Assembly (NCBI GenBank): GCA_035498355.1
Contig: DATKAG010000541.1
Coordinates: forward strand, 1 to 35,040
DNA length: 35,040 nt
Direction of reading: 5' to 3'
Source: Myxococcales bacterium
GTDB taxonomy: Bacteria > Myxococcota > Myxococcia > Myxococcales > 40CM-4-68-19
The position numbers and the translations under genes are program-made. Positions 2,902-28,471 of the stretch are shown piece after piece; positions within the stretch are counted from its first letter, which is position 1; the number at the start of each line of letters is the position of its first letter. Below the pieces are notes generated by a model, which saw only the letters and a list, made by a program, of their open reading frames with translations, was not told where the DNA came from and did no database searches.

Positions 2902-2931
2902 GCCCCGGCGCGCATCTCCAAAGGAGCAGCC

Positions 2932-4047: not shown

Positions 4048-4048
4048 C

Positions 4049-8251: not shown

Positions 8252-8297
8252 GCTCCGGCCGCGATTTTTCGGCGCGAAGACTGCAAGAGCTGCGGCC

Positions 8298-8585: not shown

Positions 8586-9711
8586 TCCGCGCGTCCGCGA
8601 GCTGAAGTTCCGCGATCCCGAGCGGGCGCGCCGGTTGACCGCTGCGCTCCGGCAGGCCGCGGAGGACATCGGCCGGCCGGCGAGCGTGATGCACGTCTGC
8701 GGCAGCCACGAGCAGGCCATCGCCCGTTTCGGGCTGCGCGCCGCCTTTCCCACGAGCCTGAACGTGATCATGGGGCCCGGCTGCCCCGTCTGCATCACCG
8801 ACGTGCCCGAGGTCGACGAGGGCGTCGCCCTGGCCCTGCAGGGCGTGCGCATCGCCACCTACGGGGACATGCTCAAGGTGCCGGGGACGGTGAAGTCGCT
8901 GGCCAGCGCCCAGGCCGAGGGCGCCCGCATCGACATCGTCTACAGCGTCGCCCAGGCCGTGCAGCTGGCGCGCTCCGTCTCCGAGGAAGTCTGCTTCTTC
9001 GCCACCGGCTTCGAGACCACCGCGGTGGCGACGGCGGCGGAGATCCTCGCCGGGCCGCCGGAGAACTTCTCCGTCCTCTCCGCGCACAAGTACATCCCGC
9101 CGGTGATGGAGATCGTCGCGGAGATGCCGGAGAACAAGGTCGAGGGCTTCCTCGCCGCCGGCCATGCCGCCTCGATCACCGGCTGGGGCGTGTTCGAGCC
9201 GTTCGCCGCCCGGCACGGGCTCCCCGTGGTCGTCGCCGGGTTCGAGCCGCTCGACATCCTCGCCGCGCTGGTCAAGCTCGTCGAGCTGGTGCGGGACGGG
9301 AGCCCCGGGGTCGTCAACATGTTCCCCCGCTGCGTGACGAAGGAGGGCAACCTCCCCGCGCAAGAGACGCTCTGGAAGGTCTTCCGGCCCCTGGGTGGCC
9401 GCTGGCGCGGGATCGCGCACGTCCCCAACGGGAACCTCAGGTTGCGCGACGAGTTCGCGCACCTCGACGCACGGCGCCGCTTCCGGATCGACCTGGCGCG
9501 CTTCTGGGACTACGCGCCCGCGGGCCTCGCCCAGCAGTGCATCTGCGGCGACATCATGGCGGGCATCAACTCGCCCACCGGCTGCGCCCTCTACGGCAAG
9601 CAGTGCACGCCGGAGAACCCGGTCGGCGCCTGCATGGTCTCCACCGAGGGCACCTGCCGCATCTGGCACCAGTACGGCGGGCTCCCCAACCTGCGCGAGG
9701 TGAAGGCATGA
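8569..9711 (+). CDS. hypD: Hydrogenase maturation Fe-S protein HypD
   Basis: CGSHEQAI and GPGCPVCIT motifs and a Cys-rich C-terminus (CICGDI...CALYG...C...C). 17-nt overlap with hypC. Confidence 0.9.
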   Translation: MQPGNDPRVRELKFRDPERARRLTAALRQAAEDIGRPASVMHVCGSHEQAIARFGLRAAFPTSLNVIMGPGCPVCITDVPEVDEGVALALQGVRIATYGDMLKVPGTVKSLASAQAEGARIDIVYSVAQAVQLARSVSEEVCFFATGFETTAVATAAEILAGPPENFSVLSAHKYIPPVMEIVAEMPENKVEGFLAAGHAASITGWGVFEPFAARHGLPVVVAGFEPLDILAALVKLVELVRDGSPGVVNMFPRCVTKEGNLPAQETLWKVFRPLGGRWRGIAHVPNGNLRLRDEFAHLDARRRFRIDLARFWDYAPAGLAQQCICGDIMAGINSPTGCALYGKQCTPENPVGACMVSTEGTCRIWHQYGGLPNLREVKA

Positions 9712-10730
9712 ACCCGCTGCTCGGCGAGCGGGTCGCTCTCAAGCACGGCGCCGGCGGCCGGGCCATGCGCATGCTGATCGAGAGCATCTTCGTCGAAGGG
9801 CTGGCCGCCGAGGTCGACGGCGTGGGGCTGGCGGCGATGGACGACGGCGCCGCCCTGCGCGTCGGCGAGCAGTGGCTGATCCTCACCACCGACTCGCACG
9901 TGGTGCACCCCCGCTTCTTCCCCGGCGGGGACATCGGGCGCCTCTCCATCTCCGGCACCGTCAACGACCTGGCGATGATGGGCGCCACCGAGCCGCTGGG
10001 CCTCACCTGCGCGGTGGTGCTCGAGGAGGGCTTCCCCTTCTCCGAGCTGGAGAGGATCCGCGACTCGATGAAGGCGGCCGCCGCCGAGGCGGGCGCCCGG
10101 GTGGTCACCGGCGACACCAAGGTGATGCGCAAGGGCGAGGTGGACGGGATCGTCCTCAACACCACCGGAGTCGCCCTGACGGGCACGCTGGTGCGCGACT
10201 GCGACCTGCGGCCCGGCGACCGGATCATCGTCAGCGGCTCGATCGGCGACCACGGCTTCGCGGTGCTCGCCGCCCGCCACGGCCTCGACCTGCAGGGGGA
10301 CCTGCGCAGCGACGTCGCGCCGGTCAACGGGGTCGTCCGGCTGGCGCTGCGCGCCGGGGGCGTCGTCGCCCTCAAGGATCCGACGCGGGGCGGGCTGGCG
10401 AGCACGCTGCACGAGCTGGCGGCGAAAAGCGGGGTGGGAATCCTGCTGGAGGAAGGGGCGATCCCCATCCACGGCGAGGTGCGGGCGGCCTCGGAGCTGC
10501 TGGGGATCGACCCGCTGCACGTCGCCAACGAAGGCAAGGCGGTGATCGGGGTGCGGCCGGAGAGCGCGGAGAAGGTGCTGGGCGCAATCCGCGAGCACCC
10601 GCTCGGCCGCGAGTCCGCCATCGTCGGCACCTGCCTCGACGACTGGAAGGGGAAGGTGATCCTCGATACCGGCTTCGGGAAACGGCTCGTGGCCGAGATC
10701 GAGGGCGAGCCCATGCCGCGGATCTGCTGA
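9708..10730 (+). CDS. hypE: Hydrogenase maturation carbamoyl dehydratase HypE
   Basis: AIR-synthase-like fold blocks (GAGGRAM, TTDSHVV, GDTKV) and the diagnostic C-terminal PRIC. ATGA overlap with hypD. Confidence 0.9.
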   Translation: MNPLLGERVALKHGAGGRAMRMLIESIFVEGLAAEVDGVGLAAMDDGAALRVGEQWLILTTDSHVVHPRFFPGGDIGRLSISGTVNDLAMMGATEPLGLTCAVVLEEGFPFSELERIRDSMKAAAAEAGARVVTGDTKVMRKGEVDGIVLNTTGVALTGTLVRDCDLRPGDRIIVSGSIGDHGFAVLAARHGLDLQGDLRSDVAPVNGVVRLALRAGGVVALKDPTRGGLASTLHELAAKSGVGILLEEGAIPIHGEVRAASELLGIDPLHVANEGKAVIGVRPESAEKVLGAIREHPLGRESAIVGTCLDDWKGKVILDTGFGKRLVAEIEGEPMPRIC

Positions 10731-11563
10731 TGAGCTTCATCCGCATCGAGCGCGAGGGAGCGGTGGGCACCCTGGTGATGGAGCGCCGGGAGCGCTTCAA
10801 CGCCATGGACTGCGAGATGGCCCGCGACTTCCGCAAGGCCGGCTTGCAGCTCGCCCGCGACCCGGAGATCCGGGCGGTGGTGCTGCGCGGCTACCCGGGC
10901 GTCTTCTCGAGCGGAGCGGACCTCAAGTACATCCGCGGCGGCGGGGATCCGAAGGGGCTCGGGTACCTCTCCCCGCAGGCGCGCAGCGTGCCTCAGGGAT
11001 ACGGCGAGGTGTTCAAGCAGATCCTCGAATACCTGCACTCGACGATCTCCGAAATCCGCCGCAGCGCGAAGCCGTGGATCGCCGCGGTGGACGGGGTGGC
11101 CGCCGCGGGCGGATTCGGCATCGCGATGTGCTGCGACCTCGTCGTCGCCTCGGCGCGCTCGACCTTCGAGTGGGCGTATGGGAAGACCGCGCTCACCGGG
11201 GCGGAGAGCAGCACGTTCATGATCACCCGGCTGGTCGGCTTCCGCCGGGCGATGGAGCTGGCGCTGCTCAACCCCCGCCTGGACGCGGCGGGAGCGCTGG
11301 CGGCGGGCCTCCTGAACCGGGTCTTCCCCGACGATTCCTTCGACGCCGAGGTGAAGGCGCTGGCGGAGCGCGTGGCGGCGGGGCCCACCCGGTCGTTCGC
11401 GGTCACCAAGATGCTCCTCAACCAGGCGGCGGGCATCGACCGGCTCGACTTCCACCTGGACCAGGAGCTGGAGAACCTGGCCCGCAGCGCCGACAGCGAG
11501 GACTTTCGCGAGGGTCTCGACGCCTTCTTTGCCCGCCGGCCGGCGGCCTTCCGGGGGCGCTGA
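10730..11563 (+). CDS. Enoyl-CoA hydratase/isomerase (crotonase) superfamily protein embedded in the hyp operon
   Basis: Crotonase signatures: RFNAMD, VVLRG..GVFSSGADLK, AAVDGVAAAGGFGIAMCCDL, LLNPRLDAAGALAAGLLNRVF. The start overlaps the hypE stop by 1 nt and the stop overlaps the hypA start by 1 nt. Confidence 0.8.
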   Translation: MSFIRIEREGAVGTLVMERRERFNAMDCEMARDFRKAGLQLARDPEIRAVVLRGYPGVFSSGADLKYIRGGGDPKGLGYLSPQARSVPQGYGEVFKQILEYLHSTISEIRRSAKPWIAAVDGVAAAGGFGIAMCCDLVVASARSTFEWAYGKTALTGAESSTFMITRLVGFRRAMELALLNPRLDAAGALAAGLLNRVFPDDSFDAEVKALAERVAAGPTRSFAVTKMLLNQAAGIDRLDFHLDQELENLARSADSEDFREGLDAFFARRPAAFRGR

Positions 11564-11895
11564 TGCACGAGTACTCGCTGGTGCAGGCGCTGGTTTCCGA
11601 CGTGGAGCGGCAGATGCGCGGCCGCGCCGGCGAGGTGCGCCGGGTGCGGGTGCGGGTGGGAGCGCTCTCGGGAGTCGATCCCGGGCTGTTCTCCACCGCG
11701 TACCAGACCTTCCGTCCCCAGACCGTCTGCGCCTCCGCGGAGCTGGAGCTCACCGGGGTGCCGGCGCGCTGGGCCTGCCCACGGTGCCGGCGGCAGATTG
11801 CCGCGGGAGAGCGCCTGCAGTGCTGCGGCGAGCCGGCCCGGCTGGTGGAGGGCGACGACCTGGTGCTGGAGCAGATCGAGCTGGAGGTGCCGTGA
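11563..11895 (+). CDS. hypA: Hydrogenase nickel-insertion protein HypA (variant zinc site)
   Basis: MHEYSLVQALV N-terminus (MHE nickel site), 110 aa. First zinc motif is CPRC, but the second position reads QCCGEP instead of CxxC. Confidence 0.85.
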   Translation: MHEYSLVQALVSDVERQMRGRAGEVRRVRVRVGALSGVDPGLFSTAYQTFRPQTVCASAELELTGVPARWACPRCRRQIAAGERLQCCGEPARLVEGDDLVLEQIELEVP

Positions 11896-11989
11896 GCAAG
11901 GAGAGCGCAGCCATTGCGCCCATTTCGCGCTCCGCGGAGGACCCGCGGCTGGCCCGTCGATTGCTGATCCCGGAGGGAGGAGATTCCGC

Positions 11990-12481
11990 ATGATGGCGCG
12001 CATTCCCCTGCTGGTGCTCGGCGTAGGCGATCCGCTCCGCCGCGACGACGGCCTCGGGCCGGCGGCCGTGGCGCTGCTCAGCCGCCGCTGGGAGGCCCCG
12101 GAGGGCGTGCGCGTGCTCGACGGCGGCACCTTGGGCGCGGACCTGCTTCCCTGGGTGGCCCGGGCGGACGCGCTCATCGTGGTGGACGCCGTGTACATCG
12201 ACCAGCCCCCGGGAACGCTGGCCCGCATCGCGGAGCCCGGAGAGGTGCTGTACGCGGAGGCGGAGCGGTTGGGCCTGCAGCAGGCGGGCGACCTGGCCAT
12301 GCCCGCCCGCCTGGCGCTTTTGGGGATCGTCCCCCAGGAGTCGGGGCCCGGGTTGCGCAGGTCGCGCTGCGTGGAGCAGGCGTTGCCGTCCCTGGTGGAC
12401 CTGATCCTCGCCGAGGCGGCTTCGCTCGGCTTCCCCTTCACGGCTCTCTCGCGGCAAACCCAGCAAGCCTTCGTCCAATAG
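11990..12481 (+). CDS. HyaD/HybD-family hydrogenase maturation endopeptidase paralog lacking any histidine
   Basis: LLVLGVGDPLRRDDGLG and IVVDAV blocks align with hybD. SD GGAGGGAGG lies 9 nt upstream. The block equivalent to hybD LSPHEPT reads LGLQQAG, and the 163-aa product contains no His. Confidence 0.75.
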   Translation: MMARIPLLVLGVGDPLRRDDGLGPAAVALLSRRWEAPEGVRVLDGGTLGADLLPWVARADALIVVDAVYIDQPPGTLARIAEPGEVLYAEAERLGLQQAGDLAMPARLALLGIVPQESGPGLRRSRCVEQALPSLVDLILAEAASLGFPFTALSRQTQQAFVQ

Positions 12482-12490
12482 GAGCGAGCC

Positions 12491-13183
12491 ATGTGCCAGG
12501 ACTGCGGCTGCGGCGACAGCGAGCTCGTTCCCGTCGAAGTGCAGGAACGCCTCCTGGCCGCCAACGACCGGACGGCGGCGCACAACCGGGAGCACTTCGT
12601 GGAGCACGGCGTCCTGGCCCTGAACCTGATGGGCTCGCCGGGCTCGGGGAAGACGGCGCTCCTGGAGGCGACGGCGCGCTGGACGAAAGGGAGGCTGCGC
12701 CTGGGCGCGGTGAGCGGGGACCTGGAGACCGACCGCGACGCCGCCCGGCTGATCAAGGCCGGCATTCCCGCCCGCGCCATCACCACCGGCACCGCCTGCC
12801 ACCTGGACGCCTCGCTGGTGCACCACGCGCTGCACGAGTTCCCCCTCGCCGGCCTGGACGTGTTCGCCATCGAGAACGTGGGCAACCTGGTCTGCCCCGC
12901 CATCTACGATCTGGGCCAGGCCGCGAACGTCGTGGTCCTCTCCGTCACCGAGGGGGAGGACAAGCCGCTCAAGTATCCCACCATGTTCCGCGCGGCCGAC
13001 CTGGTGGTGCTCACCAAGCTCGACCTCTTGTCCCACCTCGACATCCGGGTGGAGGCCATCGAGGATGCCCTCGCCCGCGTGATGCCTTCGCCCCGCCTGA
13101 TCGCCGTCTCGGCAAAGACCGGCGCGGGGATCGGGGACTGGCTGGAGTGGATCGCGCAGCGGCGGCAGAAGAAGGTGGCTTGA
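12491..13183 (+). CDS. hypB: Hydrogenase nickel-incorporation GTPase HypB
   Basis: N-terminal MCQDCGCG high-affinity metal motif. P-loop GSPGSGKT, plus ENVGNLVCP and TKLDL GTPase blocks. Confidence 0.92.
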   Translation: MCQDCGCGDSELVPVEVQERLLAANDRTAAHNREHFVEHGVLALNLMGSPGSGKTALLEATARWTKGRLRLGAVSGDLETDRDAARLIKAGIPARAITTGTACHLDASLVHHALHEFPLAGLDVFAIENVGNLVCPAIYDLGQAANVVVLSVTEGEDKPLKYPTMFRAADLVVLTKLDLLSHLDIRVEAIEDALARVMPSPRLIAVSAKTGAGIGDWLEWIAQRRQKKVA

Positions 13184-14921: not shown

Positions 14922-14938
14922 CGCCGACGTCCTCCTGA

Positions 14939-14951
14939 CGCAATTCTTGCG
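14939..14951. promoter_or_regulatory. Palindromic site CGCAA-TTC-TTGCG (copy 3 of the recurrent motif) in the hemY/hemN divergent region
   Basis: Read directly: cgcaattcttgcg. It starts 2 nt beyond the hemY Shine-Dalgarno sequence, and lies 18 nt from the hemY ATG and 109 nt upstream of the hemN ATG. Confidence 0.45.
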
Positions 14952-15059
14952 CGCCGTGTTCCATCGCGCACTTCCTGCGCGCGACGCGCCTCGATGGCGG
15001 GTGTAGAGGCCCGGAAGCAATGGGCATTCCACGGCATGCTTCGTGAACTGTGACCGGGC

Positions 15060-16412
15060 ATGTCCGCCTTTCCCCCCGTGACCGAAGAGCTGGTCCGCCG
15101 CTACGACGTCCCCGCCCCCCGGTATACGAGCTACCCGACCGCGCCGGAATGGTCGGAGCGGATCGGGCCGGCGGACCTGGCCAATGCGCTGCAAACCGCC
15201 GGCGCGCAAGGGCCTTCCGCGCCCCTCTCGCTCTACGTGCACATCCCCTTCTGCAAGGAGCGCTGCACCTTCTGCGGGTGCAACGTGGTCATCGCCCGCA
15301 ACCAGCACACCGCCGACCGCTACATCGCCATGCTGGCCCGCGAGCTGGACAGCGTGGTGCAGCCGCTGGACGAGCGCAGGACGCTCTCCCAGGTGCACTA
15401 CGGGGGCGGGACCCCCACCTTCCTCGACGAGAAGCAGCTCACCGCGCTCTGGCAGAGCATCACCCGGCGCTTCTCCATCGCTCCCGACGCGGAGGTGGCG
15501 GTGGAGGTGGACCCGGTGGTCACCACCCGCGGGCAGCTCGCGCTGTTGCGCTCGTTCGGGTTCAACCGCATCTCCCTGGGCGTGCAGGATCTCGACCCCA
15601 CGGTGCAGAAGGCCATCGACCGCATCCAGACCGAGGAGGAGACGCGGGCGGTGCTGGAGTACGCGCGCGGCCTGGGGTACGGCGGGATCAACGTCGACCT
15701 GATCTACGGACTGCCCTACCAGACGCAACAGAGCTGGGCGGAGACGCTGCGCAAGGTCATCGCCATGCGCCCGGACCGCGCGGCCGTCTACGGCTTCGCT
15801 TACGTCCCTGAGCAGCGCACCAACCAGAAGCGGCTGCCGGTGGCGGGAATCCCCCGGGGGGCGGCGAAGCTCGACCTCTTCCGCACCGCCTGGGAGGCCT
15901 TCACGGAGGCGGGGTACCGGCCCATCGGGATGGACCACTTCGCCCTGCCGGAGGACGAGCTGTCCAAGGCGCAGGAGCGGCGCACGCTGACACGCAACTT
16001 CCAGGGGTATACGGTGAAGGCGGCGGGGGACGTGGTGGCCATCGGAGCTTCCGCCATCAGCGACGTGAGCGGGCTGTACGCGCAGAACGCGCGCGGCCTG
16101 CCGCACTACTACGCGGCCGTGGGCGAGGGCCGGCTGGCCACCGAGCGCGGGTTCCGCTGCAGCGACGACGACCGGCGGCGCCGGGGCATCATCAACAGCA
16201 TCATGTGCAACTTCTGGGTGGACCTGGGGACGACGGCCGGGTGGGAGCGGGAGCTGGAGCGGCTTTCGGCGCTGGAGAAGGAAGGCCTCCTGACGGTGCG
16301 GGGCAGCGAGATCGAGCTGACGCCGCTGGGCCGGATCTTCGTGCGCAACGTGGCCTGCGTGTTCGACGCGTACCTGGGGCATGGCGAAAGGATCTTCTCG
16401 AGGGCGGTGTGA
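15060..16412 (+). CDS. hemN: Oxygen-independent coproporphyrinogen III oxidase (radical SAM) HemN
   Basis: PRYTSYPTA N-terminal motif, radical-SAM CKERCTFCGC, GGGTPTF, 450 aa. Confidence 0.92.
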   Translation: MSAFPPVTEELVRRYDVPAPRYTSYPTAPEWSERIGPADLANALQTAGAQGPSAPLSLYVHIPFCKERCTFCGCNVVIARNQHTADRYIAMLARELDSVVQPLDERRTLSQVHYGGGTPTFLDEKQLTALWQSITRRFSIAPDAEVAVEVDPVVTTRGQLALLRSFGFNRISLGVQDLDPTVQKAIDRIQTEEETRAVLEYARGLGYGGINVDLIYGLPYQTQQSWAETLRKVIAMRPDRAAVYGFAYVPEQRTNQKRLPVAGIPRGAAKLDLFRTAWEAFTEAGYRPIGMDHFALPEDELSKAQERRTLTRNFQGYTVKAAGDVVAIGASAISDVSGLYAQNARGLPHYYAAVGEGRLATERGFRCSDDDRRRRGIINSIMCNFWVDLGTTAGWERELERLSALEKEGLLTVRGSEIELTPLGRIFVRNVACVFDAYLGHGERIFSRAV

Positions 16413-19400
16413 TGAGCGACAAGGCCATCTACCTCTTTGGCGGCGGGGTGGCGGACGGGCGGGCGGAGCTGAAAGAGCTCCTGGGCGGAAAGGGCTCGGG
16501 CCTGGCGGAGATGGCCAGGCTGGGGGTCCCCGTGCCACCCGGCTTCACCATCACCACCGAGGTGTGCGCGGCCTTCCAGCAGGGCGGCGCCATCCCCGGG
16601 GCGGTGATCGCGGAGGTTCCCGGGGCGCTCGCACATCTGGAGAAGATCACCGGGCTGCGCTTCGGCGATCCTGCCGCGCCCTTGCTCGTCTCCGTCCGCT
16701 CGGGGGCGCGGGTGTCCATGCCCGGGATGATGGACACAGTGCTCGACCTCGGGCTCAACGACGTCACCGTCCGGGGCCTGGCCGCGCGCAGCGGCGAGCG
16801 GTTCGCCTGGGACTGCTACCGGCGGTTCGTCTGCATGTACGGCGGCGTGGTGCTGGGGCTGGGCGACGAGCCCTTCGACCGGATCTTCGAGGAAGTGAAG
16901 CGGGAGCGGCACGCGGCCACCGATTCCGATCTCGGCACCCGCGACCTGGCCGCGGTGGTGGAGAAGGCCAAGGCGTTCATCGAGGAGCGCACCGGCAAGC
17001 CCCTGCCTTTCGACCCGCGCGAGCAGCTCCTGCGGGCGGTGGAGGCGGTCTTCCGCTCCTGGGACAACCCGCGGGCGGTGGCCTACCGGGCCCTGCACCA
17101 CATCCCCGGCGGCTGGGGCACCGCGGTCACGGTGCAGGCGATGGTGTTCGGCAACCTGGGCGACGACTCGGGGACCGGGGTGGTGTTCTCCCGGGATCCG
17201 GCCAGCGGAGAGAACGTCCTCTACGGGGAGTATCTCCAGGCCGCCCAGGGCGAGGACGTGGTGGCGGGCATCCGCACCCCGCTGCGCATCGCCGAGATGG
17301 AGCGGAAGTTCCCCGAGGCGTACCGCGGGCTGGTGGAGACGTTGCGCAAGCTGGAGAGGCACTTCCGCGACCTGCAGGACGTGGAGTTCACCGTCGAGCG
17401 TGGCCGGCTCTGGGTGCTGCAGTGCCGCTCGGGCAAGCGCACCGGGACTGCCGCGGTCCGCCTGGCGGTGGAGATGGTGGACGAGGGCCTGATCGACCGG
17501 CGCACCGCGGTCTCCCGCGTCGAGCCCCCGGCCCTGGAGCAGCTGCTGCGTCCGGTCTTCGACTTTGATGCGCGCGCGAAAGCGGAGGTGCTGGCGCGCG
17601 GCTTGCCCGCAGGTCCCGGTGCCGCCTCCGGCCGCGCCGTGTTCAACGCCGCCGAGGCGGAGTGGTCGGCCGGGCGGGGCGAGCGGGTGATCCTTGTCCG
17701 CGAGCAGACCAGCCCGGAGGACATCCGCGGAATGGCGGCGGCGGAGGGGCTGCTCACGCAGTTCGGCGGCATGACCTCGCACGCGGCGCTGGTCGCCCGG
17801 CAGATGGGCAAGGTGGCGGTGGTCGGCGTGGAGACGATGAAGATCGACGCGGAGGGCGCCCTGTTCGGCGCCCGCCGCCTCAAGCCCGGCGACTGGATCT
17901 CGCTGGACGGCAGCGCCGGCGAGGTGATCCTCGGCAAGCTGCCCACCCGCGAGTCGCAGGCGCTGCGGGGCCTGCTGGCGAAGGATTCCACCTCCCCGGT
18001 CGTGCGGCTGCTCTCCTGGGCGGACGAGCTGCGCAGGCTGGGAGTGCGCGCCAACGCCGATCAGGGCGACCAGGCCGCGTTGGCGGCGTCGCTGGGCGCC
18101 GAGGGCATCGGCCTCTGCCGGACGGAGCACATGTTCTTCGGCCCGGGGAAGATCGAGCCGATGCGGGAGATGATCCTGGCCCGCAGCGAGGGGGAGCGGC
18201 GGGTGGCGCTGGAGAAGCTCCTGCCCCTGCAGCGGGCCGACTTCGCGGCGATCTTCCGGGCGATGGGCGGGCACCACGTCACCATCCGCACCCTGGACCC
18301 GCCGCTGCACGAGTTCTTGCCCCACGACCCGGCGGGGATCGCCGAGGTGGCGCAGGCCAGCGGCCGCAGCGCGGAGGAAGTGGCGGCGCGGGTGGAGGAG
18401 CTGGCCGAGTCGAACCCCATGCTGGGGCTGCGGGGTTGCCGCCTGGGGATCTCCTGGCCGGAGATCACCGAGATGCAGGCGCTGGCCATCTTCGAGGCGG
18501 CCTGCGACGTGGCCCAGGAGGGGATCCCGGTCAGGCCCCAGGTGATGATCCCGCTGGCCGGCACCCGCGCGGAGCTGGAGCACCAGGGGAAGGTGGTGCG
18601 GGAGGCGGCGGAGCGCGTCTTCGCCCGCCGGGGGCGGAGGGTGGAGTGGAAGCTCGGGGCGATGATCGAGGTGCCCCGGGCGGCGCTGCTGGCGGGGGAG
18701 ATCGCCGAGGTGTCGGAGTTCGTCTCCTTCGGCACCAACGACCTCACCCAGACGGTCTACGGACTCTCGCGCGACGACGTGGGGCCGGTGCTGGCGCGGT
18801 ATCTCGAGCTGGGCATCTACCCGCAGGACCCGTTCGTCTCCCTGGACCCGGCGGGCGTGGGACAGCTGGTGCGGCTGGCGGTGGAGCGCGGCCGGGCGGT
18901 GCGGCCTTCGCTGGAGGTGGGCATCTGCGGCGAGCACGGCGGCGACCCGGCCTCCATCGCCCTCTGCCACGAGCTGGGCCTGGATTACGTCTCCTGCTCG
19001 CCCTCGCGCCTTCCGGTCGCGCGCCTGGCGGCGGCGCGGGCGGCCATCGCTTCACAACGAGGAGCAATCACAATGAAACGGATCCTGGTGGGAGTGGACG
19101 GTTCGATGGAGTCCCTGCAGGCGGCGCTTCTCGCCGCGAACCTCGCGCACCAGACGCACCGCACCATCGAGCTGGCCCACGTGCTGCCCGACGCGGTCCC
19201 CATGCCTCCGGAAGCCTTCTCCACCGAGCTGGCGGTCTGGAGGAAGGAGATGGCGGAAGAGGGCAACAAGTTGCTGCAGGAGATCCGCAGCCGCGTGGAC
19301 CGCCCGGACACCGAGGTGCGCAGCACCCTGGTGGAGTCGGCCCGTCCCGCGGAAGCCCTGGCCGAGCTGGCCAAGGAGCCGGACATCGACCTGGTGGTGG

Positions 19401-19501
19401 TGGGCCACCGCGGCCGCAGCGTGGTCACCCGGGCGCTCCTGGGCAGCGTGGCGGACCGTTTGGTGCAGATCAGCCCCAAGCCGGTGCTGGTCGTCCGGTA
19501 G
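16412..19501 (+). CDS. ppdK: Pyruvate, phosphate dikinase continuing in frame, with no stop, into a universal stress protein domain (1029-aa ORF)
   Basis: PPDK blocks: GGKGSGLAEM, the swivelling-domain GGMTSHAALVARQMG with phospho-His, PEP-utiliser TIM barrel GLCRTEHMF, FGTNDLTQ, and the C-terminal SCSPSRLPVARLAAARAA that normally ends PPDK. The frame then reads IASQRGAIT-MKRILVGVDGS... to the TAG at 19499-19501. TGATG overlap with hemN. Confidence 0.85.
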   Translation: MSDKAIYLFGGGVADGRAELKELLGGKGSGLAEMARLGVPVPPGFTITTEVCAAFQQGGAIPGAVIAEVPGALAHLEKITGLRFGDPAAPLLVSVRSGARVSMPGMMDTVLDLGLNDVTVRGLAARSGERFAWDCYRRFVCMYGGVVLGLGDEPFDRIFEEVKRERHAATDSDLGTRDLAAVVEKAKAFIEERTGKPLPFDPREQLLRAVEAVFRSWDNPRAVAYRALHHIPGGWGTAVTVQAMVFGNLGDDSGTGVVFSRDPASGENVLYGEYLQAAQGEDVVAGIRTPLRIAEMERKFPEAYRGLVETLRKLERHFRDLQDVEFTVERGRLWVLQCRSGKRTGTAAVRLAVEMVDEGLIDRRTAVSRVEPPALEQLLRPVFDFDARAKAEVLARGLPAGPGAASGRAVFNAAEAEWSAGRGERVILVREQTSPEDIRGMAAAEGLLTQFGGMTSHAALVARQMGKVAVVGVETMKIDAEGALFGARRLKPGDWISLDGSAGEVILGKLPTRESQALRGLLAKDSTSPVVRLLSWADELRRLGVRANADQGDQAALAASLGAEGIGLCRTEHMFFGPGKIEPMREMILARSEGERRVALEKLLPLQRADFAAIFRAMGGHHVTIRTLDPPLHEFLPHDPAGIAEVAQASGRSAEEVAARVEELAESNPMLGLRGCRLGISWPEITEMQALAIFEAACDVAQEGIPVRPQVMIPLAGTRAELEHQGKVVREAAERVFARRGRRVEWKLGAMIEVPRAALLAGEIAEVSEFVSFGTNDLTQTVYGLSRDDVGPVLARYLELGIYPQDPFVSLDPAGVGQLVRLAVERGRAVRPSLEVGICGEHGGDPASIALCHELGLDYVSCSPSRLPVARLAAARAAIASQRGAITMKRILVGVDGSMESLQAALLAANLAHQTHRTIELAHVLPDAVPMPPEAFSTELAVWRKEMAEEGNKLLQEIRSRVDRPDTEVRSTLVESARPAEALAELAKEPDIDLVVVGHRGRSVVTRALLGSVADRLVQISPKPVLVVR
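19073..19501 (+). other. USP (UspA-family) domain with its own SD/ATG, in frame with ppdK; may also be translated independently
   Basis: GAGGAG (19059-19064) lies 8 nt upstream of the ATG at 19073. MKRILVGVDGS...DLVVVGHRGRSVVTRALLGSVADRLVQISPKPVLVVR is a complete USP fold and a paralog of the CDS at 22333..22758. Confidence 0.6.
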
Positions 19502-20157: not shown

Positions 20158-21564
20158 CTAGGCTGCCGGCGGCGCCTGCTGCGCGACTTCCGCCTGGTGC
20201 TGCCGGTCCAGCTGCGCGTACTCCTTCATCCGGTACTGGATCTTCCGGGCAGAAATCCCCAGCATGTCCGCCGCCCGCGAAGTCGATCCGCCCACCAGCT
20301 CCAGGGTGCGCAGGATGGCTTCCCGCTCGATCTCGTACAGCGTCGCCCCGGGGATCAGCGAACCGGCCTCGCGCCGGTCCGGCCGGGCGCCCCGCAGCGA
20401 AGGCGGCAGGTCGTCCGCGGTGATCTCCCGCCCCTGCGCCAGCACCACGGCCCGCTCGATGGCGTTCTCCAGCTCGCGCACGTTCCCCGGCCAGTCGTGG
20501 GCCAGGAGCGCGTTCAGCGTCCCGGGGCCCAGCCCTCGCACGTCCTTGCCGTAGAGGCGCGCGTACTTCTCGATGAAGTGCGAGGCGAGCGCGGGCAGGT
20601 CTCCCTTGCGCCGGCGCAGCGGGGGCAAAGTGACGGCGACCACGTTCAGCCGGTAGTACAGGTCCTCGCGGAACTTGCCCGCCTTCACCTCGGCGGCCAG
20701 GTCCCGGTTGGTGGCGGCCACCAGGCGGACGTCGACCTTCAGGGTCTGCGTCCCGCCTACCCTCTCGAACTCCTTGGTCTGCAGGACCCGCAGGAGCTTG
20801 ATCTGCGTGGCCGCAGAGATCTCCCCGATCTCGTCCAGGAAGAGCGTCCCGCCGTCGGCCAGCTCGAAGCGGCCTTCCCTGCGCCCGATGGCGCCGGTGA
20901 AGGAGCCCCGCTCATGCCCGAAGAGCTCGCTCTCCAGCAGCGTCTCCGAGAGGGCCGCGCAGGACACCTTGACGAAGGGCTTGTCGCGCCGCGGGCTCTC
21001 CTCGTGCAGCGCGTGGGCGATGATCTCCTTGCCCGTCCCCGACTCGCCGAGGATGAGCACGGTGGCCTTGGTGGGGGCCGCCTGGCGCACGACGTCGTAG
21101 ACCGCGCGCAGCTCGGGGGCATCGCCCACCAGGCCGTCCAGGCGGTACTGCTCGCGCACCCGGTCGCGCAGCGAGAGGGTCTCCCGCTGCAAGCGCCGCT
21201 TCTCCAGCGCCTTCTCCAGGAACACCAGCACCGCCTGCAGGTCGAGCGGCTTGGTGAGGTAGTTCTCGGCGCCGGCCTTCATCGCCTCCACCGCCGCTTG
21301 CACCGAGGCGAAGGCGGTCATCATCACGAAAGCGGCGTCGCTGCCCGCCTCCCGCGCCTTGCGGATGAGGGTGATGCCGTCCATCTTCGGCATCCGCATG
21401 TCGGTGAGCACTACGGCGGGGTCCAGCTCGGCGATCTTCGCCAGCGCCTCCTCGCCGTCTGCGGCCTCGGCGATTTCGTAACCCTCCTCGCCCAGAAGGG
21501 TTCGGAGCGCGGTTCGCGCGTTCTGCTCGTCATCGACGACGAGGATCCGTTCCTTCATTGCCAT
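20158..21564 (-). CDS. NtrC-family sigma-54-dependent response regulator (REC-AAA+-Fis HTH), paralog 1
   Basis: REC (ILVVDDE...VLTDMRMPKMDG...KP), AAA+ Walker [15 protein letters not shown]-type loop [15 protein letters not shown], Walker B LFLDEIGE, and C-terminal [22 protein letters not shown]. Confidence 0.92.
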   Translation of the reverse strand: MAMKERILVVDDEQNARTALRTLLGEEGYEIAEAADGEEALAKIAELDPAVVLTDMRMPKMDGITLIRKAREAGSDAAFVMMTAFASVQAAVEAMKAGAENYLTKPLDLQAVLVFLEKALEKRRLQRETLSLRDRVREQYRLDGLVGDAPELRAVYDVVRQAAPTKATVLILGESGTGKEIIAHALHEESPRRDKPFVKVSCAALSETLLESELFGHERGSFTGAIGRREGRFELADGGTLFLDEIGEISAATQIKLLRVLQTKEFERVGGTQTLKVDVRLVAATNRDLAAEVKAGKFREDLYYRLNVVAVTLPPLRRRKGDLPALASHFIEKYARLYGKDVRGLGPGTLNALLAHDWPGNVRELENAIERAVVLAQGREITADDLPPSLRGARPDRREAGSLIPGATLYEIEREAILRTLELVGGSTSRAADMLGISARKIQYRMKEYAQLDRQHQAEVAQQAPPAA

Positions 21565-21975: not shown

Positions 21976-21995
21976 GGGCTTTTCTCCTTGAGGAG

Positions 21996-22106
21996 TCAGT
22001 GGAACAGCGGTGCGCAGGCCAGACCGATGAGGATGGCGCCCATCCAGACGAGCAGGAACGCTGTTGCCCGGGAACGCGGATTGGGCCTCGCCGTCGATGG
22101 ACGCAT
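21996..22106 (-). CDS. Unannotated 36-aa single-TM sORF directly upstream of the cytochrome c gene
   Basis: The minus strand reads AAGGAGG, then 7 nt, then ATG. Product is MRPSTARPNPRSRATAFLLVWMGAILIGLACAPLFH followed by a stop, which lies 20 nt before the cytochrome c GTG. Below the ORF-track length cutoff. GC3 is high in the hydrophobic half and lower in the N-terminal third. Confidence 0.45.
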   Translation of the reverse strand: MRPSTARPNPRSRATAFLLVWMGAILIGLACAPLFH

Positions 22107-22138
22107 ACGAAAGCCTCCTTTACGACGTCTGCGTGTTG

Positions 22139-22154
22139 AGCAAGACGCATGCCC
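22139..22154 (-). promoter_or_regulatory. Candidate sigma-54 promoter for the sORF-cytochrome c-activator-membrane protein operon
   Basis: The minus strand reads GGGCATGCGTCTTGCT, with GG-N10-GC exact, GGCATG against GGCACG, and a TTGCT -12 box. The predicted start site near 22128 gives a 22-nt leader carrying the sORF SD. Confidence 0.5.
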
Positions 22155-22225
22155 CTCTGCCGTCGAGCGTCAAGACGAGGTTTGCACGCACGAAATGCAC
22201 AGCGGAATGCCGCAAATCCCCCCTC

Positions 22226-22267
22226 TGCGCAGGGATTGCGCCTCCTCGACTGCGCAGGGCTTTCGCA
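22226..22267. promoter_or_regulatory. Two direct repeats TGCGCAGGG(A/C)TT(-/T)(G/C)GC(-/A), 25 nt apart, 75-100 nt upstream of the 22153 sigma-54 element; candidate enhancer (UAS)
   Basis: tgcgcagggattgcgc (22226-22241) and tgcgcagggctttcgca (22251-22267). The first contains CGCAG-GGA-TTGCG, a 9/10 match to the recurrent palindrome; the second matches 8/10. Confidence 0.35.
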
Positions 22268-22332
22268 TCGGGCCAGGAGTTGCTCGAGGCCCTGCCGTCG
22301 GAAGGACGGCGCGCTGGAACGAGCTGGCAGAG

Positions 22333-22758: not shown

Positions 22759-22924
22759 GGTACACCTCCGGTGCAGAAGTGTTCATAAAGCATGCCGCCT
22801 CCATCCTCGCGACTTGTCGAAGCAGCAATCGCAGGAACTGCAACCACGGGGGGCGCATCGCGCACCCGCGCCTTTTCGGCCACCCGAATCTCGCCCGACG
22901 CATTTGCAGCGGCCTTCCCGTCGA

Positions 22925-22945
22925 GGGGCGCAACTCTTGCGCCCC
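22925..22945. promoter_or_regulatory. Perfect 9-bp inverted repeat GGGGCGCAA-CTC-TTGCGCCCC (copy 4, the longest, of the recurrent motif) in the USP/hemerythrin divergent region
   Basis: Read directly. Because of the flanking G/C runs it also satisfies GG-N10-GC on both strands: GGCGCAACTCTTGC on plus and GGCGCAAGAGTTGC on minus. Confidence 0.55.
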
Positions 22946-22974: not shown

Positions 22975-22990
22975 CGGCTCGCCCCTTGCA
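22975..22990 (+). promoter_or_regulatory. Candidate sigma-54 promoter for the hemerythrin-like gene plus activator paralog 2
   Basis: CGGCTCGCCCCTTGCA with exact GG-N10-GC spacing and a TTGCA -12 box. The predicted start site near 23001 lies just ahead of SD AGAGGAGG (23002-23009) and the ATG at 23015. Confidence 0.45.
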
Positions 22991-23518: not shown

Positions 23519-24910
23519 ATGCCCAAGGAACGCATCCTCGTCGTCGACGACGAGCAGAACGCCCGCTCTGCGCTCCGCCTCATCCTCAGCGAGGAAGGCT
23601 ACGAGATCGCCGAGGCCGAGGACGGAGAGGCCGCGCTGGCCCGGCTGGAGGAGTTCGCCCCCGCCGTGGTGCTGGCGGACGTGCGCATGCCCAGGATGGA
23701 CGGGCTGACCCTGCTGCGCACCGCCAAGGAGCGGGGGAGCGACGCCATCTTCATCATGATGACCGCCTTCGGCACGGTGGAGGCGGCGGTGGAGGCGATG
23801 CGCGCCGGCGCGGAGAACTTCCTCACCAAGCCGCTGGACGTGAACTCGGTGCTGGTCTTCCTGCAGAAGGCGTTGGAGAAGCGCAAGCTGGTGCGCGAGT
23901 CGCAGGCGCTGCGGGAGCGGGTGCGGGAGCGCTACCGGATCAGCGGCATGGTGGGCGAGGCCCCCGAGCTGCAGGCCGTCTACCAGGTGGTGAAGCAGGC
24001 CGCGCCCACCCGGGCCACCGTGCTCATCCTGGGCGAGTCCGGCACCGGCAAGGAGCTGATCGCCCAGGCGGTGCACGAGGAGAGCGACCGGGCGCAGAAG
24101 CCGTTCGTCAAGGTGAGCTGCGCGGCCCTCTCCGAGACCCTGCTGGAGAGCGAGCTGTTCGGGCACGAGAAGGGCTCCTTCACCGGGGCGATTGCGCGCA
24201 AGGAGGGCCGCTTCGAGCTGGCCGACGGCGGGACGCTCTTCCTCGACGAGATCGGCGAGATCACCCCTTCCACCCAGGTGAAGCTCTTGCGGGCCCTGCA
24301 GACCCGGGAGTTCGAGCGGGTGGGCGGGACGCAGACCATCAAGGTGGACGTCCGCCTGGTGGCCGCCACCAACCGCGACCTGGTGGCGGAGGTGAAGGCA
24401 GGGAAGTTCCGCGAGGACCTCTTCTACCGGCTGAACGTGGTGGCGGTGACGCTGCCGCCCCTGCGGCGGCGCAAGGGCGACATCCCCGCCCTGGTGAGCC
24501 ACTTCGTGGAGAAGTACGCGGCCAACTACGGCAAGGAGGTGAAGGGCCTCGCTCCCGGCACCCTCAACGCCCTGCTCGCCTACGACTGGCCGGGCAACGT
24601 CCGCGAGTTGGAGAACGCGGTGGAGCGCGCGGTGGTGCTCTGCAAGGGCCGGGAGCTGACTGCGGACGATCTCCCGCCCACCATGCAGGGGCCTCGCCCC
24701 GCCGGCCGCGACGCCAACAGCCTCATCCCCGGGGCCACCATGGCGGAGATCGAGCGGGAGGCCATCCTCCGCACCATGGAGATGGTGGGCGGCTCCACCG
24801 CCAAGGCGGCGGACATGCTGGGCATCTCCATCCGCAAGATCCAGTACCGGCTGAAGGAGTATTCGGGCGAGGTGCCCCCGCACACGGGCGATCACGAGCC
24901 CGAGGCATAG
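23519..24910 (+). CDS. NtrC-family sigma-54-dependent response regulator, paralog 2
   Basis: Collinear with the 20158..21564 product, roughly three-quarters identical by eye. Shares GESGTGKE and [15 protein letters not shown], and the HTH is almost identical ([19 protein letters not shown]). Confidence 0.92.
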
Positions 24911-24917: not shown

Positions 24918-26003
24918 TCAAGCTCTCGGCAGGCGGACCCAGAAGCGGGCCCCGCCCAGCGGCGACTTCTCGTACCCGATCGAGCCGCCGTGCTGGATGA
25001 CGATGGCGTGCACGATGGGCAGGCCCAGCCCGGAGCCGGACGCCTTGGTGGTGAAGAAGGGCTCGAAGATCCGCTCGGCGTTCTCCGGGGGGATACCCGG
25101 GCCGCTGTCGTCCACCGCCAGCACCACGTCCCGGTCCACCGCCCGGGCGGTGACCCGCACCCGGCCGCCCCTGGGGGCGGCCTCCAGGGCGTTGAGGGCC
25201 AGGTTCATCATCACCTGCCGCAGCCGCTCCGCGTCTCCCAGCACGGAGGGGAGGTCCGGCGCGATCTGCTGCTCGAGCGCGATCCCCCGGCGCTCCGCGT
25301 CGCCGCCCAGAAGCCCCAGCACGGCTTCCAGCACCCCCTGGACCTCCACCGGCCGCGCGTCCAGCTCCCGCGGCCGGGCGAACTGGAGGAAGTCCTCCAA
25401 CAGGTGCTCCAGCCGGCGGATCTCGTCGCGCACCAGCCCCAGCGGCTCCAGCAGTGGGCCCTGCAGGTCCTCGGTCAGCTTGCAAATGCGCCGCTCCAGC
25501 ACCGCGAGCTGCAGCCCGGCCGCGTTCAAGGGATTGCGGATTTCGTGGGAGATGCCCGCCGTCAACGTCCCCACCGCCGCCAGCTTCTCCGCCACTTGCG
25601 CCCGCCGGGCCAGCTCGCGCTTCTCCGCGTGCAGCCTCACCTGGCGCAGCGCCTGCTCGATGGTGAGGAGCAAGTCGGCGGTGCTGCAGGGCTTCACCAG
25701 GTAGGCGAAGGCGCCCGCCCGCACCGCTCCGATGGCCGTTTCCAGGGTGGCGAACCCGGTGAGGAGCACGATCTCGCCCCCGGGGGAGAGATCCTTGAGC
25801 TGCACCGCCAGCGCCGTGCCCGAGGCGTCGGGCAGGCGCAGGTCGACCAGGGCCACGTCGAACCCCGACCCGGCCTTCTCCAGCGCCTGGGCCGCCGAGG
25901 GCGCGACGGCCACCCGGTACTCCTCCTCCTCGAGGATCTGGCGCAGGTTGTCGAGCAGGGCGGTGTTGTCGTCCACCACCAGGATGCGGGCATCCTTGCT
26001 CAA
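24918..26003 (-). CDS. Receiver-fused histidine kinase (REC-HisKA-HATPase_c)
   Basis: N-terminal REC (ILVVDDN...[13 protein letters not shown]...VKP), H-box [12 protein letters not shown] box [10 protein letters not shown] boxes DDSGPGI and GSGLGL. The apparent TTG start (26003) overlaps the upstream gene's TGA. Confidence 0.85.
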
Positions 26004-26704
26004 AGGGCGCTCCTCTGCTGGTGGATGCGTTCGATGGTCCGCAGGAGCGCCCCGGTATCGAAGGGCTTGGCGAAGACCGTCGCCCCGCTCTCGCTCATCC
26101 CCTCGGCGAAAGCGGTGATGACGATCTGCGGCAGGTCGGGGAAGCGCCGGGCGAGCAGGTGCATCGCCTGGCCGTCGGGCCCTCCCGGGACCCGCCGGTC
26201 CACCAGGGCGAGGAAGGGGCGCACGTCGCCGAACCGCTCCGCGTCCGCGATGGAGCGCGCGGTCACCGCCGAGAAGCCGTGGTCGCGCAGGGTCTCGCAG
26301 AGGTTGTCGGCCAGGCCGGCGTCGTCCTCCACCAGCGCTACCAGCGCGTCGCGGCGGGCCGCCTGGAGCAGCTCCAGCAACCGGGGAACGGGGACGGGCT
26401 TGGGAAGGACCGCCAGGATTCCTTCGTTGCGGGCGGCCGCCAAGTCGTCATCGCCGGTGTAGGCCGTCACCACGATGGTGGGAAGCTGGGAATCGCCGCG
26501 GCGGATCTCGTGCACCAGCCGGGCGCCGCTCATCACCGGCATGCGCATGTCGGTGACCAGGGCGTCGAAGCGGCGCTCCCGGGCCGCACGCAGCGCCGCC
26601 TCGGCGCCGGGGGCGGTGACCACCTCGTGGCCGGCATCGCGCAGGATCTCCGCCAGGTTCTCCGCGAAGGCCGCGTTATCGTCCACCAGGAGGAACGTCT
26701 TCAT
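26000..26704 (-). CDS. Output-less response regulator with two tandem receiver domains
   Basis: 234 aa. REC1 is FLLVDDN...ALVTD(52)MRMPVMSG...PKP. REC2 is ALVEDD...LALVD(169)RRVPGGPDG...AKP. ATGA overlap with the upstream kinase. Confidence 0.85.
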
Positions 26705-27846
26705 GCGGCGGCCCTCGGCAGCCGGACCACGAAGCGCGCGCCCAGGCTGCCGGGAGCATAACCGATGGTGCCACCGTGCCGCTCGACGATGCGCTTGACC
26801 AGGGCCAGGCCCAGCCCGATGCCCTTGGCCTTGGTGGTGACCAGGGGCTCGAAGAGCCGGGCGCGGATGGAGGGATCGATGCCCTTGCCGCTGTCCTCGA
26901 TTTCCACCTCCGCCTGGCCCTGCTCCGTCCCCGCCCGCACCCAGACCTTGCCCCGCTCGCCGACGGCGTGGACGGCGTTGTCGATCAAGTTGACGAACAC
27001 CTGGCGGAGCTGGCCAGCATCGCCCTCCACCTCCGGCAGGCGAGCCAGCCCCTGAAGCTCCAGCTCCACCTGCGCCGGCCGGCCCACCGCCGCCGCCGCC
27101 GCCTCGATCACCTGCGCCAGGGCCAGCCGCTCCCGGGCCAGCGGCTTCTCCCGGATCATGTCCAAGAGATCGGTGATGATGCTGTTGGCGATCCCCAGCT
27201 GCTCGCCGATGCGCTCCACGTGCTTTTCCGCCCGCTCGTCGCCCTTGGTGCGGTTGCGGAGGATGAAGAGGGAAGTCTCCATCACTCCCAGGGGATTGCG
27301 CAGCTCGTGCCCGATGGAGCCCACCAGCTGCCCGAAGGTGGAGAGGCGCTCCACCCGCGACTGCTGGGCCAGCAGGTCCTCCCGGTAGGTGTGGAGCATG
27401 ATGGCCAGCTCGATGTCCAGCGCCTTGCCCAGGGCGGCGCGGGCCGCGGCCAGCTCCTCGGGGCGGTCGCGGTAGTGGACGTCGATCACCGAGTTCAGCT
27501 GCCGCCGGAACACGTTCATGGCCGCGAACATGTAGTGCTGGGGCAGGGCGATGCGCACGTGGACCCGGCCGATCCGGCAGCGGAGCTCGAAGTATTCCTG
27601 GTCCCAGGGCCCTAGCAGCAGGCGGTCCATCCAGGCGATGAGCGTGCCCTTGAGCCTGCCCACCGCGCTCTCGCCCCCCACCAGGGCCTTGCGCGCCTCG
27701 TCGTGGAGGAGGATCCGGTCGTAGAAGACGTCTGCCACCCGCTCGAAATGAGGCTGCGCCACGGAGTGCAGGGCGCGGAGGGCGGATTCGTCCCCGGAGT
27801 TCCAGTCTACGTACCTCTGCAGCTCTTGCAGCAAGGTCTCCGCCAT
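26701..27846 (-). CDS. Globin-coupled (protoglobin sensor domain) histidine kinase
   Basis: The N-terminal 150 aa carry sensor-globin signatures: distal Tyr in DVFYDRIL and proximal His in [20 protein letters not shown]. These are followed by H-box [12 protein letters not shown] and the HATPase N/G boxes ([21 protein letters not shown]). Start is the ATG at 27846; the rest of ORF 26701..28161 is antisense to the CBS gene. Confidence 0.85.
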
Positions 27847-27908
27847 GCGCGGGAACGTACCGGCAGCGGAAGGCGGCCGGCAACGGTTCGCCCGGTAATC
27901 TTGCGCGC

Positions 27909-27924
27909 TGCAAGCGTCAAGCCT
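27909..27924 (-). promoter_or_regulatory. Candidate sigma-54 promoter for the globin-kinase operon (also contains a TTGACG -35-like hexamer)
   Basis: The minus strand reads AGGCTTGACGCTTGCA with exact GG-N10-GC spacing and a TTGCA -12 box. The leader would be about 50 nt. Confidence 0.3.
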
Positions 27925-27993
27925 CGCTTTTTGCGGAGTTTTTGCGCAGAACTTGCGCGCCGGGACCCCCGGCGCGCCGGCCGCGGCGCAAGT

Positions 27994-28022
27994 GGTTCGC
28001 CCGGGAGAACCGGTTCGCCCGG
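27994..28022 (+). repeat. Tandem direct repeat GGTTCGCCCGGG x2 (18-nt period) with an embedded palindrome GAACCGGTTC; third copy at 27885-27895
   Basis: Read directly: tGGTTCGCCCGGGagaaccGGTTCGCCCGGGtg. A third GGTTCGCCCGG lies at 27885. Confidence 0.7.
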
Positions 28023-28078
28023 GTGAAAGGCCCCCCGGGGGGTGGCCCGGCGCTTGCTGCCAAAAAGGGCAAGCCGCG

Positions 28079-28471
28079 ATGCGCATCGTCGAGCAGTACA
28101 TGAGTCGCGAGCCCGCGACGATCGGCAAGGACGAGCCGCTCGTGGCCGCCCACCGGCTCATGCAGACCCATCGGATCCGCCACTTGCCGGTCCTCCACCA
28201 GGGCCGGATCGTGGGCGTGGTCAGCGAGCGCGACCTCTACCTGCTAGAGACGGTGAAGAACGTCGACCCGCGGCGCGAGCCGGTGGAGGAGGCGATGACC
28301 GCCTTCCCCTTCACTGTTCCGCCGGACGCTCCCCTGGCCGACGTCGCCCGGCAGATGTGGAAGCACCGCTACGGCTCCGCCCTGGTGGTGAAGGACGGCA
28401 GCCTGGTTGGCATCTTCACCCGCGCCGACGCGCTGCGGGCGTTGACCGAGATCGATCCCCCGCGCGCCTGA
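28079..28471 (+). CDS. Stand-alone CBS-pair domain protein
   Basis: 130 aa with two CBS repeats ([44 protein letters not shown] and [47 protein letters not shown]). Confidence 0.8.

Follow-up and report, generated by a model that had tools for sequence, protein, structure and literature searches.

A probable NmpRSTU phosphorelay with two NmpR paralogues and boxed sigma-54 promoters for a low-oxygen response in an uncultured Myxococcales bacterium

The window analysed here is a stretch of 35,040 nucleotides (nt) from an uncultured Myxococcales bacterium (contig DATKAG010000541.1 of assembly GCA_035498355.1, positions 1 to 35,040), with a G+C content of about 71%. Three overlapping genes at 24918-27846 encode a globin-coupled histidine kinase, a protein of two receiver (REC) domains and a hybrid kinase, and two genes for NtrC-type sigma-54 activators lie close by. 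With good confidence, resting largely on orthology to Myxococcus xanthus, we read this locus as the NmpRSTU phosphorelay of the bacterium, with two NmpR paralogues and with sigma-54 promoters that carry NmpR boxes, serving a low-oxygen response. A sequence-only reading of the same stretch had proposed a relay from the globin kinase to the sigma-54 activators. That proposal is right in substance but not new, as the relay was published in 2018 and extended in 2025. The genes of the relay are the following:

26701-27846, minus strand: nmpU orthologue, globin-coupled histidine kinase of 381 amino acids (aa); Pfam Protoglobin, HisKA and HATPase_c
26000-26704, minus strand: nmpT orthologue, REC-REC protein of 234 aa; Pfam, two Response_reg stretches
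24918-26003, minus strand: nmpS orthologue, REC-HisKA-HATPase hybrid kinase of 361 aa with a TTG start; Pfam Response_reg, HisKA and HATPase_c
23519-24910, plus strand: nmpR paralogue 2 (R2), 463 aa, REC-sigma54 AAA+-HTH_8; Pfam, 74% identical to M. xanthus NmpR
20158-21564, minus strand: nmpR paralogue 1 (R1), 468 aa; Pfam, pairwise comparison and tree

The domains of NmpU, NmpT and NmpS were detected by Pfam with E-values between 1e-9 and 1e-33, and Pfam found no output domain in the 234-aa REC-REC protein, only the two receivers. Independent gene calls on a public contig with an identical globin kinase gave the same three genes. The nmpU and nmpT genes overlap at ATGA (minus strand 26704-26701), the nmpT stop overlaps the nmpS start at TTGA (minus strand 26003-26000), and the nmpS stop, which begins at 24918, is separated by a 7-nt gap from the stop of the convergent nmpR2, which ends at 24910. 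NmpU of the window has Y42 as distal residue, H96 as proximal haem ligand and H180 as the phospho-His in its H-box; the receiver aspartates of NmpT are D52 and D169, and NmpS has D54 in its receiver and H153 in its kinase part. The sequence-only reading had described the three genes, their domains, the TTGA overlap, the gap to the convergent activator and the NmpU and NmpT residues in just this way. The public ENA contig k141_5446256 (L083) matches window 6412-29498 with 36 mismatches and 2 gaps over 23 kb (99.82% identity), and these differences move some gene coordinates by 1-4 nt.

Comparison with M. xanthus (L009) identified the three proteins as orthologues of NmpU (65% identity), NmpT (56%) and NmpS (65%), encoded in the same U-T-S order, and gave 74% identity for NmpR. 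Both activators of the window reach about 74% to M. xanthus NmpR and nest in the NmpR clade, the outgroup being 41% identical, and both retain Walker A, GSFTGA and Walker B. In M. xanthus, NmpRSTU are MXAN_4240, 4244, 4245 and 4246 (PMC6211767; PMC11841059), with NmpU as protoglobin kinase, NmpT as double receiver, NmpS as hybrid kinase with an N-terminal receiver and NmpR as NtrC-like regulator (PMC6211767). Epistasis placed all Nmp proteins in one pathway with NmpR as its output (Bretl 2018, PMC6211767). With purified domains, NmpU phosphorylated the NmpS receiver and the first receiver of NmpT (REC1), not NmpR; the only target phosphorylated by NmpS was NmpR; and no phosphate was exchanged in vitro between NmpS and NmpT in either direction, NmpT being called a sink by the authors (PMC6211767). 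The NmpS variant D59A had raised activity, and Bretl 2018 proposed that O2-bound NmpU holds NmpS off and that NmpR is phosphorylated as O2 falls (PMC6211767). The published sign is inhibitory: O2-bound NmpU switches NmpS off, and the activators are therefore phosphorylated at low O2. The haem ligand H96 of NmpU was later found to be required for kinase activity in M. xanthus (McAllister 2025, PMC11841059).

Each step that the sequence-only reading had proposed, from the globin kinase to the REC-REC protein and the REC-kinase and on to a sigma-54 activator, has been shown in this orthologous system and would be expected to carry over to the window. It had offered the REC-REC protein as a shuttle or a sink; the sink agrees with the term used for M. 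xanthus, but a shuttle finds no support, as NmpS and NmpT exchanged no phosphate in vitro. It had also presented the sigma-54 activators as the missing output of the globin sensor. They stand as the output, but it was not missing, as the relay and its conservation in Anaeromyxobacter sp. Fw109-5 had already been published.

The residues that would govern partner choice are conserved as well. The dimerization and histidine phosphotransfer (DHp) helices of NmpS are nearly identical to those of M. xanthus NmpS, and those of NmpU likewise to NmpU, while NmpS and NmpU differ from each other. In receiver helix alpha-1, at the positions taken from the Spo0F/OmpR literature to determine partner specificity, NmpT-REC1 reads AFNEI and the NmpS receiver ALNQI, compared with AFNEI and AFNEL in M. 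xanthus; R1 reads NAATL and R2 NAALI, against NAATI in M. xanthus NmpR. The DNA recognition helices of R1 and R2 both follow the NmpR pattern IS-x-RKIQYR-x-KEY.

The globin domain of NmpU aligned without gaps to PDB entry 5OHE, the structure of the Anaeromyxobacter globin-coupled histidine kinase AfGcHK (query 2-158 on chain 5-161, E 2.7e-60, 63% identity). Window Y42 falls on Tyr45 and H96 on His99 in this alignment, so the constant +3 offset to AfGcHK numbering, as given in the sequence-only reading, holds. The roles of Tyr45, His99 and His183 in AfGcHK are established, and O2 binding to its Fe(II) haem turns the kinase on (PMC8697598). AfGcHK is regarded as an NmpU homologue, and nmpRSTU forms one contiguous locus in other deltaproteobacteria (PMC6211767). 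A PDB search with the REC-REC protein returned generic receivers only (best FleR, 1.7e-13), with no AfGcHK-regulator structure among the matches. A full-text literature search for the presumed Asp52/Asp169 numbering of the Anaeromyxobacter regulator gave nothing.

To place the locus among its relatives, a genome scan was made with alignment of globin-kinase homologues, which yielded at least 23 loci with a full or partial globin kinase. The loci include M. xanthus; Anaeromyxobacter sp. Fw109-5 is not among the matches listed, and its comparison is based on the 5OHE sequence and published statements. For linkage, the 24 loci with 2.3 kb or more of sequence downstream of the globin kinase were counted, 19 of them from species representatives and 5 from metagenome contigs. 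The sequence-only reading had allowed that the third gene might prove absent or unlinked in most genomes carrying the globin-kinase pair; instead, the REC-kinase lies directly downstream in 24 of 24 loci. An NmpR-like gene (at least 55% identity) is present within 10 kb in all 24, usually convergent and right after nmpS. Of the 24, 19 have a full-length nmpT, 4 (L002, L017, L018 and L020) have one cut down to a single receiver, and 1 (L013) lacks the gene. The REC-kinase is, if anything, a more constant partner of the globin kinase than the double receiver: nmpS is always present, and the REC-REC protein, which the AfGcHK work treated as cognate regulator, is shortened or missing in five loci and is thus the least constant component. 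The two closest relatives with both nmpR paralogues, L084 and L085, have globin kinases 82-83% identical to that of the window. Across L084, L085 and L086, identity to the window is 81-83% for NmpU, 82-91% for NmpT, 86-95% for NmpS, 90-95% for R2 and 97-99% for R1, the sensor kinase NmpU being the fastest-diverging component.

These counts bear on whether the locus might consist of two independent two-component systems lying side by side, with the globin kinase and the REC-REC protein as a closed pair and the REC-kinase and NtrC-type activators responding separately to another signal. The in vitro work on AfGcHK did take the REC-REC protein as its cognate regulator (PMC8697598), and a different kinase could in principle act on the REC-kinase. 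However, it is the REC-kinase that is found at every assessable locus and the REC-REC protein that varies, the 4-nt nmpT/nmpS overlap is present in the window and in relatives, the NmpS receiver and NmpT-REC1 share alpha-1 residues, and epistasis and phosphotransfer in M. xanthus join both halves directly (PMC6211767). We consider such a division very improbable.

Under the NmpRSTU reading, O2 on the haem of NmpU, with H96 as proximal and Y42 as distal residue, would lead to autophosphorylation at H180. The phosphate would then pass to D52 of the double-receiver NmpT, acting as a sink, and to D54 within the NmpS receiver domain, and phosphorylated NmpS would be in a kinase-off state. When O2 drops, NmpU would fall silent, and unphosphorylated NmpS would autophosphorylate at H153 and then phosphorylate NmpR; phosphorylated NmpR would bind GCGCA-N5-TGCGC boxes and activate sigma-54 promoters. 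Boxed promoters would drive nmpUTS, the gene of a CBS-domain protein, the hemerythrin-nmpR2 unit and the unit of a small open reading frame (ORF), cytochrome c and nmpR1, and probably also a universal stress protein (USP) gene, a HemN-like gene and [NiFe]-hydrogenase maturation genes. The outcome would be a low-oxygen response with positive autoregulation. We infer the phosphotransfer steps, their sign and the service of both paralogues as NmpS substrates from orthology to M. xanthus.

The NmpR box of M. xanthus is GCGCA-N5-TGCGC, and the NmpR oxygen-utilisation regulon there includes a CBS protein, a USP, cbb3 oxidase genes, HemN and hemerythrin (PMC11841059). NmpR-dependent hypoxic induction was shown for mxan_4236, an NmpR-bound promoter also lies upstream of nmpU, and the CBS gene heads the nmpR operon (PMC11841059). 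The window holds six perfect NmpR boxes where 0.28 would be expected, a number that no shuffle out of 100 attained; in the related loci there are 27 perfect boxes, about 2.2 being expected by base composition. The types of the neighbouring genes (CBS, USP, hemerythrin and HemN-like) match the published regulon, and the boxes stand at the places predicted by the published model. The boxes, promoters and genes around the relay are:

27909-27924, minus strand: sigma-54-like promoter AGGCTTGACGCTTGCA of nmpUTS, conserved in L084 and L085
27933-27947 (one mismatch), 27944-27958 (perfect) and 27986-28000 (one mismatch): three NmpR boxes between nmpU and the CBS gene, conserved
28043-28058, plus strand: sigma-54-like promoter TGGCCCGGCGCTTGCT of the CBS gene, conserved in relatives
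28079-28471, plus strand: CBS-domain protein gene, divergent from nmpU (Pfam CBS, 1.1e-28)
22928-22942: perfect NmpR box GCGCAACTCTTGCGC between the divergent USP and hemerythrin genes, kept in L084 and reduced to a half-site in L085
22975-22990, plus strand: sigma-54-like promoter CGGCTCGCCCCTTGCA upstream of hemerythrin-nmpR2, conserved in L084 and L085
23015-23464, plus strand: hemerythrin-domain gene, first in the hemerythrin-nmpR2 unit (Pfam Hemerythrin, 5.4e-10), conserved in L084-L086
22333-22758, minus strand: USP gene (Pfam Usp in gene calls)
22227-22241 (perfect) and 22252-22266 (one mismatch): two NmpR boxes 10 base pairs (bp) apart, lying upstream of the cytochrome c-nmpR1 promoter and kept in L084 and L085
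22139-22154, minus strand: sigma-54-like promoter GGGCATGCGTCTTGCT of the small ORF-cytochrome c-nmpR1 unit, conserved in L084 and L085
21996-22106, minus strand: hydrophobic small ORF of 36 aa, MRPSTARPNPRSRATAFLLVWMGAILIGLACAPLFH, read from the sequence, with AGGAGG just upstream, conserved in L084 and L085
21646-21975, minus strand: gene of a monohaem c-type cytochrome of 109 aa with CxxCH (Pfam Cytochrome_CBB3 and Cytochrom_C)

Alignments showed that the boxes and the sigma-54-like sites are conserved in L084 and L085 and that the intergenic DNA around them diverges. The promoters suspected earlier at 22153 and 22976 lie close to two of these sites, 22154-22139(-) and 22975-22990(+).

Several points weigh against this reading. 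A plain scan for the sigma-54 consensus was not enriched in the GC-rich window (40 sites found, 35 expected), so the promoter argument rests on position and conservation and not on counts; only sigma-54-like sites that lie next to boxes and are conserved in relatives were used. These sites deviate from the consensus at 1-4 positions, and some boxes stand 9-60 bp from the -24 element, nearer than is typical for enhancer-binding proteins. The phosphotransfer steps proposed for the window are all transferred from the M. xanthus system, whose proteins are 56-74% identical. Work on Anaeromyxobacter reportedly found both aspartates of the REC-REC protein phosphorylated, whereas in M. xanthus only that of REC1 is. 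Finally, R1 and R2 may be unequal substrates of NmpS, because Leu replaces Thr in R2 at an alpha-1 specificity position where R1 has the ancestral Thr, as do most other NmpR orthologues.

Further features were noted around these promoters. The nmpU 5' leader (27847-27889, minus strand) is highly conserved in close relatives and has inverted repeats, with no obvious ribosome-binding site; a structured RNA was considered here and rejected, the predicted fold being no stabler than those of shuffled sequences (z = -0.04). The gene calls on the public contig do not include the 36-aa ORF. A conserved minus-strand motif, TGCATTTCGTGCGTGCAAACC (22179-22199), which may be a site for a bending protein or for a second regulator, separates the NmpR boxes of the cytochrome c-nmpR1 unit from its promoter. 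The motif CGGCATGCTT[CT][GA]TGAAC lies just upstream of both the USP gene (22781-22797, minus strand) and the HemN-like gene (15032-15048, plus strand), and the copy at the USP gene is conserved in both L084 and L085. The motif looks like the -24 element of a sigma-54 promoter whose -12 is aberrant (GA for GC); alternatively, another regulator may bind there. In the interval from the USP gene to the cytochrome c gene, L085 has ResB and Cytochrom_C_asm genes (15560-18345), L084 has only ResB fragments (15492-16814), and the window (21976-22332) is without cytochrome c biogenesis genes, which points to their progressive loss from this interval.

The duplicated final activator, with each copy in its own boxed operon, is the particular feature of this clade. 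R1 and R2 are 79% identical in protein and about 80% in DNA. Both are found in L084 and L085, where R1 is kept with the cytochrome c gene, and L086 has R2 only within 10 kb; in the other 21 relatives, outside the window's clade, no second nmpR was found within 10 kb. R2 occupies the position that nmpR has in most relatives, its ancestral genomic place. In a neighbour-joining distance tree, each paralogue clade had 100% bootstrap support and the union of R1 and R2 only 8%, and therefore the duplication is old or one copy came from a related lineage. We infer that R1 and R2 would both be substrates of NmpS and would bind the same boxes.

The low bootstrap of the union and the modest identity of R1 and R2 would also suit a split output, as would their difference at two alpha-1 specificity positions: one paralogue only would be the substrate of NmpS, most simply R2, which is convergent with nmpS, and R1 would be under another kinase, for example the GAF-PAS histidine kinase at 34076-32079(-), so that two activators would integrate two signals on the same boxes. 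This kinase has no adjacent regulator and is syntenic in L084-L086. R1 also has a sigma-54-like element of its own at 21592-21577, CGGCACGACACTTGCG on the minus strand, which is strongly conserved and lies 13 nt upstream of the nmpR1 start codon, with no NmpR box nearby; a promoter at this place, inside the cytochrome c-nmpR1 unit, would yield a near-leaderless transcript. Yet the alpha-1 residues of M. xanthus NmpR are retained in R1 and not in R2, the NmpR clade takes in both paralogues, and both have boxed promoters. The DHp helix of the GAF-PAS kinase, HDVRNPLAVIMASANLLERH, is unlike those of NmpS and NmpU, and because of its unlikeness to NmpS this kinase is kept as a partner of an NmpR paralogue at low confidence only. 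A split output therefore appears unlikely next to a relay in which NmpS would serve both paralogues.

Beyond the relay, the window looks like a clustered low-oxygen regulon. An operon of an uptake-type [NiFe]-hydrogenase extends over 446-13183, starting with hypF, the small subunit, a 4Fe-4S protein and an NrfD-like membrane protein and continuing with the large subunit, a protease, hypCDE, hypA, a second hycI and hypB. Boxes precede several of its genes and the HemN-like gene:

446-460 and 491-506: one-mismatch NmpR box and sigma-54-like site preceding hypF and the [NiFe]-hydrogenase operon
8184-8198: perfect NmpR box preceding hypC
11905-11919 and 11950-11965: perfect NmpR box and strong sigma-54-like site preceding hycI/hypB
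14938-14952 (one mismatch) and 14966-14980 (perfect): NmpR boxes 13 bp apart before the HemN-like gene
15060-16412, plus strand: HemN-like radical SAM gene (Pfam and gene calls)

Hydrogenase genes are not part of the published M. xanthus NmpR regulon (PMC11841059). The boxes at these genes suggest that the O2 relay may control H2 oxidation, as a prediction and not a finding. The boxes before the HemN-like gene parallel NmpR control of hemN in M. xanthus, and the plus strand from these boxes to the start codon yielded no good sigma-54 site. The next gene (16412-19501) encodes a 1029-aa protein like pyruvate phosphate dikinase or phosphoenolpyruvate synthase with a C-terminal USP domain; in L084 the USP is a separate gene adjoining the dikinase-like gene.

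We tentatively suggest, as a possibility somewhat more doubtful than not, that in this clade one NmpU-NmpS relay feeds two diverged NmpR paralogues, which would share one DNA box yet differ in kinase-specificity positions and in promoter architecture. This would give a two-tier response to low oxygen, for example graded or sequential, which would reach the uptake [NiFe]-hydrogenase and its maturation genes and so couple direct O2 sensing to H2 oxidation. The duplicated output regulator and a possible hydrogenase link are the modest novelties of the locus.

The locus agrees with the papers of 2018 and 2025 and adds little to the question of what globin-coupled kinases have as their output. Its value is comparative: across the 24 relatives the globin kinase is constantly accompanied by NmpS and NmpR, and the double receiver is dispensable. 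The NmpR box of M. xanthus carries over to distant relatives, which makes it a tool for predicting the low-oxygen regulons of uncultured myxobacteria; the regulon predicted here would include hydrogenase maturation and the HemN-like gene. The duplicated regulator offers a natural case in which to study how one kinase would serve two paralogous sigma-54 activators.

Among known systems, EsxG of Rhizobium NT-26 and Lvr of Leptospira (cited in PMC6211767) are hybrid kinases with an N-terminal receiver that are under another kinase's control; they too have the REC-HisKA-HATPase architecture, the receiver serving as input domain of the kinase as in NmpS, and the LvrB structure 8VC9 was among the PDB matches to the kinase core; only the architecture is common, with no orthology and with different upstream sensors and outputs. 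AfGcHK of Anaeromyxobacter sp. Fw109-5 (PDB 5OHE, 5OHF and 6OTD) is much closer, with its ungapped, 63% identical globin domain, the Tyr, His and phospho-His at a constant +3 offset and a REC-REC gene following it. That organism is a different one, and the AfGcHK biochemistry ended at the REC-REC protein, but the Fw109-5 locus too comprises nmpSTU with a convergent nmpR, and a CBS gene flanks nmpU (PMC11841059). With NmpRSTU of M. xanthus the window shares the four protein architectures, the nmpU-nmpT-nmpS order, the haem ligand H96, the conserved specificity helices, the NmpR box and sigma-54 promoters upstream of both nmpU and the nmpR operon, and the regulon-type neighbours. In M. xanthus, nmpR lies 3.7 kb off at the end of the mxan_4236-4240 operon, whereas in the window it is convergent and 7 nt from nmpS. 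The window, from a metagenome-assembled genome of an uncultured Myxococcales bacterium, further differs in its boxes before [NiFe]-hydrogenase maturation genes and in having two nmpR genes, each in a small boxed operon, one with hemerythrin (R2) and the other with the small ORF and cytochrome c (R1).

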